From contig JBGAHT010000007.1 in the NCBI GenBank assembly GCA_044226035.1, positions 2,406 to 66,405 of the forward strand: a DNA stretch of 64,000 bases. Reading direction: 5' to 3'. The notes below the pieces were generated by a model, which had not been told where the DNA came from, did no database searches, and saw only the letters and a list, made by a program, of their open reading frames with translations. This DNA is from Thermomonas sp. (GTDB lineage Bacteria > Pseudomonadota > Gammaproteobacteria > Xanthomonadales > Xanthomonadaceae). The position numbers and the translations under genes were made by a program. Below are positions 1-1,360 of this stretch, piece after piece; position 1 is the first letter of the stretch, and each line of letters begins with the position of its first letter.

Positions 1-797
1 GCGTCGTGCAGCTGTTCCGGGCTGGCGTATTCGAAGGTCAGCACGCGATCCATCGTCGCGGTGGCATCGGCCTGCTGCAATTGCTTGGCGATGCCGAAGT
101 CGAGCAGCTTGACCCGTCCGTCCGCGTCGACCAGCAGGTTGGACGGCTTCAGGTCGCGGTGCACCACCAGGTTGCGATGCGCGTAGCGCACCGCGTCGAG
201 CACCTGCAGGAACAGCACGCAGCGCTCGCGCAGGCCAAGCTTGCGTTCGTCGCACCAGCGATCGATCGGCACGCCTTCGACCAGCTCCATCACGAACCAG
301 GGCTCGCCGTCGGCATTGATGCCGCCGTCGAGCAGGGTGGCGATGTTCGGGTGCTGCAGGCCGGCCAGGATCTGGCGTTCGCGCAGGAAGCGCTCGCGCG
401 CGGTGGGCGTGTCCGCGCTGGCGCGGATCAGCTTCAGCGCCGCCCGTTGCGCATAGGCGCCATCGCCGCGCTCGACCGCATACACCGCGCCCATGCCGCC
501 ATGGCCGACGACGCCGACGATCTTCCAGGCGCCGATGCTGCGGCCGAGCATGTGGCCGTGCGCTCCGTCGTCCTCGTGCGCATGCGCGAGCGCCTCGCCC
601 CAGGCCGCCACGTCGCCGCTGACGGGCTCCGCGTCGCTGGCGTCCGCCGCCAGCAGCGCGCGCACCTGCGCCAGCAGCGCGTCGTCGCCGGCGCAGGCTT
701 CGAGCAATCGCGCCTCGCGTTCCCCGCCGGCGAGGTCGGCGACCTGGTCGAAGATCGCGAGCGCGCGCCTGCGCCGTTCGCTCGCGGCGTCATTCAC
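1..797 (-). CDS. Ser/Thr protein kinase, N-terminal part (partial; C-terminus lies beyond the window start), genomically paired with an ECF sigma factor
   Basis: Reverse-complement translation of 1-797 gives VNDAASERRRRALAIFDQVADLAGGEREARLLEAC...HRDLKPSNLLVDADGRVKLLDFGIAKQL...YASPEQ. These are the Hanks kinase subdomains VIb (HRDLKPSN) and VII (DFG). A GTG start overlaps the sigma factor stop at 794-797. The ORF track shows only an antisense ORF here because the true frame runs off the window. Confidence 0.8.
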   Translation of the reverse strand, partial: MNDAASERRRRALAIFDQVADLAGGEREARLLEACAGDDALLAQVRALLAADASDAEPVSGDVAAWGEALAHAHEDDGAHGHMLGRSIGAWKIVGVVGHGGMGAVYAVERGDGAYAQRAALKLIRASADTPTARERFLRERQILAGLQHPNIATLLDGGINADGEPWFVMELVEGVPIDRWCDERKLGLRERCVLFLQVLDAVRYAHRNLVVHRDLKPSNLLVDADGRVKLLDFGIAKQLQQADATATMDRVLTFEYASPEQLHD

Positions 798-1360
798 GCA
801 GGCATCTCCGCGAGCAGGAAGGCGCGCGCCTTGCGCCAGTCGCGGCGCAGGGTGCGGTCGCTGATATCGAGCATCTGCGCGATCTCCGCTTCCGAATAGC
901 CGCCGAAGTAGCGCAGTTCGACGATCTGCGCGGCGCGTTCGTCCGCCTTGTGCAGCGACTGCAGGAGTTCGTCGAGCGCCAGCACTTCGAACACCGCGCG
1001 CTCGCCCGATTCCACTCCGCCCGCGGTCAGGGTCAGCGCTTCGAGCCCGCTTCCGCGCTTGTCCGCCTTGCGCGCGCGCGCGTCGTCCACCAGCACCTGC
1101 CGCATCGCCCGCGCCGACAGCGCCAGCAGGTGGTTGCGATCGGTCGCGGTGAGCCTGCTGCCGCCGGCGAGCTTGAGGTAGGCCTCGTGCACCAGCGCGG
1201 TGGTCTGGAAGCGGTCGTGCGAACGCCGCAACTGCGCGCGCGCGGCGCGCTTGAGTTCGTCGTACACCGCGGCATAGGCGGTGCCCAGCGCCTGCACATC
1301 GCCCTCGCGGGCGCGGGCGAGCAGCGCGGTGACCTCGGGTTGCTGCGATGCCGGTTTCAT
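794..1360 (-). CDS. ECF (sigma-70 family) RNA polymerase sigma factor, co-transcribed with the downstream Ser/Thr kinase
   Basis: 188-aa ORF with region 2 (ALVHEAYLKL) and region 4 (ELRYFGGYSEAEIAQMLDISDRTLRRDWRKARAFL) motifs. Its stop overlaps the kinase start. Confidence 0.85.
   Translation of the reverse strand: MKPASQQPEVTALLARAREGDVQALGTAYAAVYDELKRAARAQLRRSHDRFQTTALVHEAYLKLAGGSRLTATDRNHLLALSARAMRQVLVDDARARKADKRGSGLEALTLTAGGVESGERAVFEVLALDELLQSLHKADERAAQIVELRYFGGYSEAEIAQMLDISDRTLRRDWRKARAFLLAEMPA

Follow-up and report, generated by a model that had tools for sequence, protein, structure and literature searches.

Two group ECF43 extracytoplasmic function (ECF) sigma factors have been characterized together with their Hanks-type Ser/Thr kinase partners: EcfP with PknT in Vibrio parahaemolyticus, the ECF43 prototype (Iyer et al. 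2020, as described in PMC8999054), and EcfK with PknS in Xanthomonas citri (XAC4128/XAC4127; PMC8999054, PMC13147305). The acidic DAED/DxxD motif in region 2.2 of other sigma factors contacts the β' subunit of RNA polymerase; ECF43 members have lost it and carry a conserved phospho-acceptor Thr instead, with the consensus QTTA (STTA in EcfP and QATE in EcfK; PMC13147305, PMC8999054). PknS consists of an 83-residue N-terminal extension, a kinase domain, a transmembrane helix and periplasmic TPR repeats (PMC13147305). It phosphorylates EcfK directly at T51 and T106 in vitro, and mutants have been studied in vivo and a crystal structure solved (PMC8999054, PMC13147305). We analyzed a 64,000-nucleotide stretch of a Thermomonas sp. 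genome (GenBank assembly GCA_044226035.1, contig JBGAHT010000007.1, forward-strand positions 2,406 to 66,405), hereafter the window, in whose coordinates all positions are given. It carries two sigma factor/kinase cassettes, each of which is most likely a two-gene ECF43-type transmembrane signaling module in which the kinase would activate its sigma factor by phosphorylation, by analogy with these homologues. An earlier note on this DNA had regarded the mechanism as largely uncharacterized, a view overtaken by the work on EcfP/PknT (2020) and on EcfK/PknS (2018 and 2026; PMC8999054, PMC13147305). Our literature search on the two orthogroups in Lysobacter or Stenotrophomonas found nothing relevant in the library consulted. 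The four genes are as follows.

794..1360, minus strand: sigma 1, putative ECF43-type sigma factor, 188 aa; PF07638 and TIGR02999 above threshold
1..797, minus strand: kinase 1, 5' part, 265 aa visible, the gene leaving the window at its left edge; Pkinase match
38222..38785, minus strand: sigma 2, putative ECF43-type sigma factor, 187 aa; PF07638 and TIGR02999
35412..38210, minus strand: kinase 2, 932 aa; Pkinase and TPR_12, best PDB match PknS (9eed)

EcfK/PknS comes from the same bacterial order, and EcfK belongs to the same sigma family. Like EcfK, both window sigma factors have a region-2.2 Thr and linker Thr residues of the TLT type, and like PknS, both kinases have the extension, the Hanks domain, one transmembrane helix and a periplasmic TPR region, the last two being taken from orthologues in the case of kinase 1. 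The window sigma factors are nevertheless paralogues of EcfK rather than orthologues (33-35% identity), with QTTA (sigma 1) or DATA (sigma 2) where EcfK has QATE. EcfK/PknS furthermore lies inside a type VI secretion cluster and controls it, whereas the window cassettes lie beside mutM/tdk and beside tamAB plus an adhesin gene. EcfP likewise has a Hanks kinase partner and no anti-sigma factor and, going by its published description, shares with sigma 1 a motif free of acidic residues, with the second Thr at the same position. As PMC8999054 presents it, EcfP belongs to another class-level lineage and its regulon is polymyxin resistance in Vibrio; a single phosphosite is reported there, whereas the window sigma factors also have Thr residues in the linker.

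More distant systems share parts of this arrangement. RpoE/RseA also combines a two-domain (sigma2 plus sigma4) sigma factor with a single-pass membrane partner encoded directly downstream and a transmembrane signal; in the window, however, the partner would be an activating kinase and not a proteolytically removed inhibitor, and the sigma factors, unlike RpoE, lack the acidic β'-contact motif and are predicted to be inactive by default. Groups ECF59-62, ECF217, ECF267 and ECF283 resemble ECF43 in having a Ser/Thr kinase in the conserved neighborhood, usually with no anti-sigma factor (PMC7826278), and kinase adjacency alone is therefore insufficient to define the group. Unlike the window sigma factors, members of these groups generally retain a DAED-like acidic motif (PMC8999054). 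In Mycobacterium tuberculosis the Hanks kinase PknB phosphorylates SigH in its sigma2-sigma4 linker (PMC13147305), but SigH falls outside ECF43 and is controlled by the anti-sigma factor RshA. The window thus holds two further ECF43 members in one Lysobacteraceae genome, of a mechanism class already established in Vibrio and Xanthomonas. As such the find is ordinary, and its value rests on the adhesin association and the QTTA/DATA contrast described below and not on the cassettes themselves.

Anatomy of the two cassettes

The earlier note had proposed two ECF sigma/Ser-Thr kinase cassettes in the window, and PF07638, TIGR02999, Pkinase and tblastn confirmed both. The sigma factor matches were full length: sigma 1 scored 139 bits against PF07638 (cut-off 21) and 176 bits against TIGR02999 (cut-off 126), and sigma 2 scored 158 and 192 bits against the same two models. 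Planctomycete-type NCBIfam models were tried for the sigma factors and rejected (TIGR02984, 29-38 bits against 184; TIGR02989, 20 bits against 125). Pkinase matched kinase 2 with E=1.9e-43, accompanied by four TPR_12 stretches, and the visible part of kinase 1 with E=1.8e-34. Searching the window by tblastn with all four proteins returned exactly two cassettes.

The PknS-like four-part layout is present in full in kinase 2. An extension (residues 1-74; 37989-38210) precedes the Hanks kinase domain (residues 75-351), followed by the only transmembrane helix found (residues 385-407; 36990-37058), with basic residues ahead of it, and by a periplasmic TPR-rich region of 525 residues (408-932). The catalytic motifs are the P-loop GEGGMGQV (residue 82), VALK (103-106), the alpha-C motif FTRERQI (121), HRDLKPSN (197), DFG (217) and APE (247). 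In kinase 1 the visible part comprises an extension of about 92 residues and Hanks subdomains I to VIII, with the P-loop GHGGMGAV at residue 98, AALK at 119-122 (Lys122), the alpha-C motif FLRERQI at 137, HRDLKPSN at 213, DFG at 233 and SPE at 259. Contig L087, a metagenomic relative 98.8% identical to window positions 1-1371, prolongs the kinase 1 reading frame past the window edge by 77 residues and supplies subdomains IX-XI.

Full-length kinase 1 orthologues measure 794-1341 aa. In the first three distinct orthologous places of cassette 1 the kinase has 797-960 aa, with a transmembrane helix at about residue 395 and TPR hits; a helix was found in loci L001, L003 and L005, and these loci together with L002 gave TPR hits. 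The orthologue in L088, where the sigma factor is 85% identical, has 960 aa. The apparent distinction of kinase 2, which the earlier note had credited with a transmembrane helix and a TPR region in addition to what kinase 1 has, is thus an effect of the window edge. The overlapping stop and start ascribed to both cassettes hold for cassette 1, where 4 nt (GTGA) are shared between the kinase 1 GTG start at 797 and the sigma 1 stop at 794-796; in cassette 2 an 11-nt spacer separates the sigma 2 stop at 38222 from the kinase 2 ATG at 38210. Read from GTG 797, kinase 1 begins VNDAAS, where its orthologues have MNDAA.

Aligned with each other as the earlier note had suggested, the two sigma factors are 50% identical (E=1e-49), and so are the two kinase cores (E=3e-55). 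The P-loop, VAIK Lys, alpha-C Glu, HRDLKPSN, DFG and A/SPE are present in both kinases, with an activation-loop Thr five residues ahead of A/SPE; all visible catalytic motifs, including the HRD Asp and DFG, are intact, and neither protein is a pseudokinase. Among solved structures, PknS(1-364) of X. citri (PDB 9eed) is the nearest relative of both kinases (E=6e-53 for kinase 2 and 2e-41 for kinase 1), and the alignments begin at residues 3 (kinase 2) and 9 (kinase 1), so that the extension is included.

Kinases of both orthogroups, and those of distant phyla, share one homologous extension module, which has an invariant Arg and a conserved core of about 50 residues. The helical N-terminal extension of the earlier note is real but longer than the 60 or so residues given there: it measures about 92 aa in kinase 1 and about 74 in kinase 2. 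The median P-loop start among the kinases scored is position 83. The extension diverges faster than the kinase core, both between the paralogues (28% against 50% identity) and within orthogroups (about 50-55% against 72-83%). An extension profile matched PknS (E=1.4e-8) as its sole significant PDB hit; a UBA-like domain, the next-best PDB match, was rejected at E=0.12, below significance. Against Pfam the same profile retrieved no recurrent family and no anti-sigma family. A role of the extension in sigma factor docking or partner specificity is plausible from this pattern, with the possibility that it insulates the paralogous sigma-kinase pairs from each other. The periplasmic regions of the two kinase types, in turn, align at about 31% identity over only 80-120 aa. 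They are almost unalignable, and the inputs of the two kinases therefore probably differ.

Cassette 2 lies between mutM and tdk, and cassette 1 lies beside the adhesin gene on its visible side. No anti-sigma or PP2C family was matched among the window open reading frames given Pfam scans, and no anti-sigma family was seen downstream of kinase 1 in the orthologous loci, the window itself ending within that gene.

Region 2.2 and the predicted phosphorylation switch

In region 2.2, sigma 1 reads F-QTTA-LVHEAYLKL (QTTA at residues 52-55), with the acidic residues fully lost, and sigma 2 reads L-DATA-LVHEAYLKL (DATA at residues 50-53), where the first Asp remains but the Glu and the second Asp have gone; QATE of EcfK, which retains one charge, is comparable. 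The predicted phospho-acceptors are T54 in sigma 1 and T52 in sigma 2. T53, T54 and T110 are invariant in 121/121 aligned sigma-1-type sequences. Among the 71 aligned sigma-2-type sequences T52 is invariant, D50 is found in 70, and the second Asp of the motif is lost in all. The region-2.2 Thr is also kept in the nine scorable of ten distant relatives (about 50% identity; Acidobacteriota, Gemmatimonadota, Bacteroidota and others). In the linker, sigma 1 has T110 and T112, and sigma 2 has T108 followed by D109, the first of its acidic linker residues (D109, D112, D113 and E115); across the sigma 2 group position 108 is Thr in 48/71 and the next residue Asp or Glu in 68/71. The region-4 signature that the earlier note gave as common to both is exact in sigma 2, and sigma 1 departs from it by one mismatch (ISDR for RS.R).

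We also compared both proteins with EcfK (UniProt Q8PF57), about 94% of which was rebuilt from tryptic peptides in the PMC13147305 supplement, its numbering being anchored on eleven residues named in that paper and supplement. The rebuilt sequence could be aligned over its whole length with both proteins, at 35% identity to sigma 2 (E=1e-19) and 33% to sigma 1 (E=2e-18). EcfK T51 aligned with T52 of sigma 2 and T54 of sigma 1, and the functionally critical linker residue T106 with T108 of sigma 2 and T110 of sigma 1. A two-residue indel gives an alternative in which VTLT of EcfK falls on LTLT of sigma 1, so that T104/T106 correspond to T110/T112.

The profile matches, the kinase adjacency, the region-2.2 motif, the lack of an anti-sigma partner and the homology to EcfK together support assignment of both sigma factors to the ECF43 type. 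The hallmark Thr and the end-to-end EcfK alignment bear out the earlier proposal of a kinase-linked ECF group without a classical anti-sigma factor, and the ECF43 features place neither protein in an anti-sigma-regulated group. By analogy with EcfP, sigma 1 with its chargeless motif should be off by default and strictly dependent on phosphorylation. Sigma 2, with DATA and an acidic linker, may have basal activity, or a single phosphosite may suffice, as for EcfK. Uncharged QTTA and half-charged DATA plus acidic linker in one cell offer a natural test of how far phosphorylation is needed at each contact point.

Taken from the characterized homologues, the mechanism would run as follows. Each kinase would be a single-pass receptor, with the extension and Hanks domain in the cytoplasm and the C-terminal TPR-rich region of about 525 residues in the periplasm, where an envelope or extracellular cue would lead to autophosphorylation of the activation loop. 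The active kinase would phosphorylate the region-2.2 Thr of its cognate sigma factor (T54 in sigma 1, T52 in sigma 2) and probably also Thr residues of the linker between sigma2 and sigma4 (T110/T112 in sigma 1, T108 in sigma 2). The added negative charge would restore the β' contact that ordinary ECF sigma factors make through Asp or Glu, so that holoenzyme would form and a dedicated regulon be transcribed with no anti-sigma factor involved. The two modules go back to an old duplication of the sigma-kinase unit and would now sense different inputs.

Several points weigh against this account. What we observed is gene anatomy, family membership, motif and residue conservation and synteny; every biochemical step, the signals and the regulons are carried over from the characterized homologues. 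The transmembrane helix and TPR parts of kinase 1 are likewise those of its orthologues, as they would lie outside the window. The sigma 1 linker aligns to EcfK with an ambiguity of two residues, the promoter readings given below are consensus-based, and no partner phosphatase was found among the window open reading frames scanned. Sigma 2 retains the first Asp of its motif (Asp50) and an acidic linker and so may not need phosphorylation, position 108 is Ala in 22/71 of its orthologues, and EcfK T51A is functional in vivo, still complementing the deletion (PMC13147305). These last observations would equally suit an arrangement in which sigma factor and kinase are co-transcribed without being a dedicated pair, the kinases acting on other substrates (several substrates are common for Hanks kinases) and the sigma factors, sigma 2 at least, being active unmodified and controlled through transcription or stability. 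We consider this unlikely, since the adjacency of the two genes is held across phyla, the region-2.2 Thr is invariant and the second motif Asp always lost in the sigma 2 group, and both characterized homologous pairs are direct kinase-substrate pairs.

The kinase might instead serve mainly as an anti-sigma-like tether, its extension sequestering the sigma factor at the membrane until a signal releases it, with phosphorylation secondary or needed for release only. The conserved extension module with its invariant Arg, together with the median P-loop start at position 83, would suit such a role, its faster divergence is what a partner-specificity element should show, and in the PknS crystal the extension is disordered. 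The extension profile, however, has no anti-sigma family in Pfam and no significant PDB match besides PknS. A phosphomimetic alone, moreover, activates EcfP and EcfK in the absence of the kinase (PMC8999054, PMC13147305), and EcfP, by the account in PMC8999054, is intrinsically inactive and not sequestered. Tethering alone would also leave the invariant region-2.2 Thr unexplained, and we regard it as very unlikely. High GC yields many long spurious reading frames on all strands, and in a 70% GC genome the pairing could in principle be a chance or annotation artefact of such frames or of pseudogenes. That explanation is already refuted and its probability negligible: family E-values run from 1e-34 to 1e-57, the catalytic and DNA-binding motifs are intact, and orthologues with 62-98% identity and the same gene order occupy more than 100 loci. 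The GC content at third codon positions (GC3) is 0.84-0.90 in the coding frames of the cassettes, which are therefore not GC-driven spurious frames. Activation by phosphorylation is the explanation that we retain.

Conservation and chromosomal setting

The kinase gene adjoins the sigma factor gene in 69/70 sigma-2-type loci (the remaining contig stops before that point), in every sigma-1-type locus checked for adjacency and in 10/10 matches from distant phyla. The 4-nt overlap recurs in all six sigma-1-type loci examined (three distinct places), and sigma-2-type spacers are mostly 5-30 nt, so that overlap or spacer is a stable property of each orthogroup. Sigma 2 has orthologues with 62-84% identity in Lysobacter, Luteimonas, Arenimonas, Thermomonas, Pseudoxanthomonas, Stenotrophomonas (including S. 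maltophilia) and Xanthomonas, and the order mutM, sigma 2, kinase 2, tdk (inverted) and rep is held in nearly all of their loci. Sigma 1 has more than 7,400 database relatives at E<=1e-10, with orthologues of 78-93% identity in Lysobacter, Thermomonas and Rhodanobacter. Plant-pathogenic Xanthomonas and Stenotrophomonas maltophilia are among the members of the order across which both orthogroups are conserved.

All four proteins resemble their orthologues from other families far more closely than their paralogues in the window. Together with the equal divergence of the sigma factors and of the kinase cores (50%), this indicates that the pair was duplicated as a unit before the order radiated. 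The ancestral order at cassette 1 is glyS, a small open reading frame, tamA, tamB, sigma and kinase, as in locus L001, and the window retains the order glyS-tamA-tamB-cassette 1:

11094-13268: glyS
8582-10498: tamA
4660-8574: tamB

The synteny indicates that both cassettes are order-wide core loci and not recent acquisitions. Accordingly, their presence within 40 kb, which the earlier note had implied to be remarkable, reflects the positions of two separate old loci, each conserved across the order, and not a cluster. The remaining neighbors are those of a housekeeping chromosome (parA, rsmG, hemB, aroE, plsB and tatC):

53320-54138: parA
54160-54807: rsmG/gidB

With mnmG/gidA near the sigma 1 orthologue in L001, the presence of parA and rsmG/gidB places the window close to the replication origin.

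Two side observations concern variation at these loci. In a Chiayiivirga metagenome-assembled genome (L075, positions 1-13300) two sigma-kinase cassettes lie within 10 kb; the sigma factor beside mutM there is another paralogue, with 43-53% identity to sigma 1 and sigma 2, and a sigma-2-type pair follows 9 kb on, so that in one lineage or more the place beside mutM has received a new or an additional occupant. Kinase length ranges from 387 to 984 aa among sigma-2-type loci (e.g. L021, L025, L055, L056, L063, L064, L067 and L071), some kinases being truncated or split in the periplasmic region (two pieces in L056, about 390 aa in L055 and L071). These differences point to decay or remodeling of the sensor in some lineages, with the sigma factor left intact.

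Upstream elements, the adhesin gene and a tRNA-like pair

Upstream of the two sigma factor genes we found the following conserved elements.

1395..1403, minus strand: 9-mer TGCGAAACT, 34 nt ahead of the sigma 1 ATG; candidate extended -10 (TGn plus GAAACT)
38810..38815, minus strand: TATAGT, 24 nt ahead of the sigma 2 ATG, within the 52-nt mutM/sigma 2 spacer; candidate housekeeping-type -10
1376..1432, no strand assigned: rest of the divergent intergenic block of sigma 1, with GGACAC at 1376-1381 and the GC hairpin CCGGCGAAATGCCGG at 1418-1432

Of 34 dereplicated sigma-1-type loci, 33 contain the pattern TG[CT][GC]A[ACG]ACT, which is absent from all 65 sigma-2-type loci and from 427 kb of background. 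TATAnT is present in 56 of the 65 dereplicated sigma-2-type loci (median 30 nt ahead of the ATG) and in 0/34 sigma-1-type loci, with 27 matches in 2.25 Mb of background. Both patterns were derived from the sequences scored, so that their specificity is informative and the enrichment as such is not. No conserved -35 and no typical ECF AAC...CGT pair was found in the upstream regions of either group, and a generic scan gave no full sigma-70 consensus promoter beside either cassette. The -10-like elements lie where a -10 would be expected, and we infer that they act as promoters. Their promoter-like distance and the lack of an ECF AAC...CGT pair would fit, without proving, constitutive transcription with post-translational control.

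For TGCGAAACT the extended -10 reading, in which GAAACT retains A2 and T6, fits better than an ECF -35 reading (GAAAC), although neither is proven. The latter was set aside, as the leader would shrink to about 4 nt and the conserved Shine-Dalgarno sequence would be cut, and GGACAC, tried as the matching ECF -10 of sigma 1, is present in only 12/34 loci. A sigma-54 reading of the block was rejected by eye on the spacing of GG...GC. Intrinsic terminator searches beside the cassettes gave only chance-level hits, on the opposite strand inside mutM.

On the other side of the sigma 1 spacer lies an adhesin gene, within an insertion that also holds a second open reading frame.

1458..2876, plus strand: YadA-like trimeric autotransporter adhesin, 472 aa, with signal peptide; YadA_stalk and YadA_head
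3153-4598, minus strand: 481-aa open reading frame with a signal-peptide-like N-terminus, between the true tamB end and a remnant copy

The adhesin has a collagen-like Gly-X-Y run (GPAGPRGPAGPPGPAGPQGPAG) between its head repeats and stalk, and its C-terminus is anchor-like, though Pfam YadA_anchor did not reach E<=0.001. Its gene is divergent from sigma 1 over a 97-nt spacer (1361-1457). Compared with L087, where 80 nt separate the tamB end from sigma 1, window positions 1372-4661 form an insertion of about 3.3 kb, with a GC content of 64% against 71-73% in the flanks and GC3 of 0.80 against 0.89-0.92. It contains the adhesin gene, the 481-aa reading frame and a further, diverged copy of the 3' end of tamB. 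The tamB ends at 2935-3067 and 4662-4794 form a direct repeat of 133 nt with 86% identity. The 481-aa reading frame had no Pfam match and no homologue in any sigma-1-type locus fetched. Homology to L087 resumes only 11 nt before the sigma 1 ATG, and the promoter region was therefore exchanged along with the adhesin gene.

An adhesin gene with its own promoter block recurs upstream of and divergent from sigma 1, the alternative context being a place beside TamAB. The 33 dereplicated sigma-1-type loci with sufficient upstream sequence comprise 16 with a divergent YadA-like gene, nine with tamB immediately upstream and eight with other neighbors. The window spacer carries the adhesin-associated version of the block, with TATGCG...GGACAC and the CCGGC...GCCGG hairpin. 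The GGACAC box and a CCGGC-N4-7-GCCGG hairpin followed by GTGA recur in loci with a gene divergent from sigma 1. The hairpin may serve as an operator or form a stem-loop within the 5' untranslated region of the adhesin transcript. A few of its base changes are compensating. Rfam gave no match to the spacer at E<=1, and RNAalifold found no consensus structure on an automatic alignment, although each sequence folds singly into a hairpin.

The recurrent placement of an adhesin gene at one position suggests functional coupling with sigma 1, a recombination hot spot being the alternative. TamAB helps assemble autotransporters, which would fit such coupling. On this basis the adhesin gene is a candidate target of sigma 1 through a putative regulatory link, and the adhesin/TamAB neighborhood offers a concrete first target gene for the sigma 1 type. 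The stronger proposal, that sigma 1 and kinase 1 form a dedicated surface-sensing regulator of a strain-variable YadA-like adhesin, is tentative, and we hold it to be rather doubtful.

Away from the cassettes, two tandem tRNA-like modules lie at 49631-49767 (minus strand), directly upstream of a Band7/SPFH gene (48112-49545) and rtcB (46828-48057). The Rfam tRNA model scored them at 44 and 43 bits, but ARAGORN called no tRNA in the window as a whole. In both modules the anticodon arm is cut to a 4-nt loop, and ACCA closes the first module. The immediate neighborhood showed no Ro/Rsr (TROVE) gene, and the tandem element was in none of the fetched loci. A YrlA (Y RNA-like) match spans both modules below threshold (30 bits, gathering score 69), and the pair may be a Y-RNA-like element linked to RtcB.

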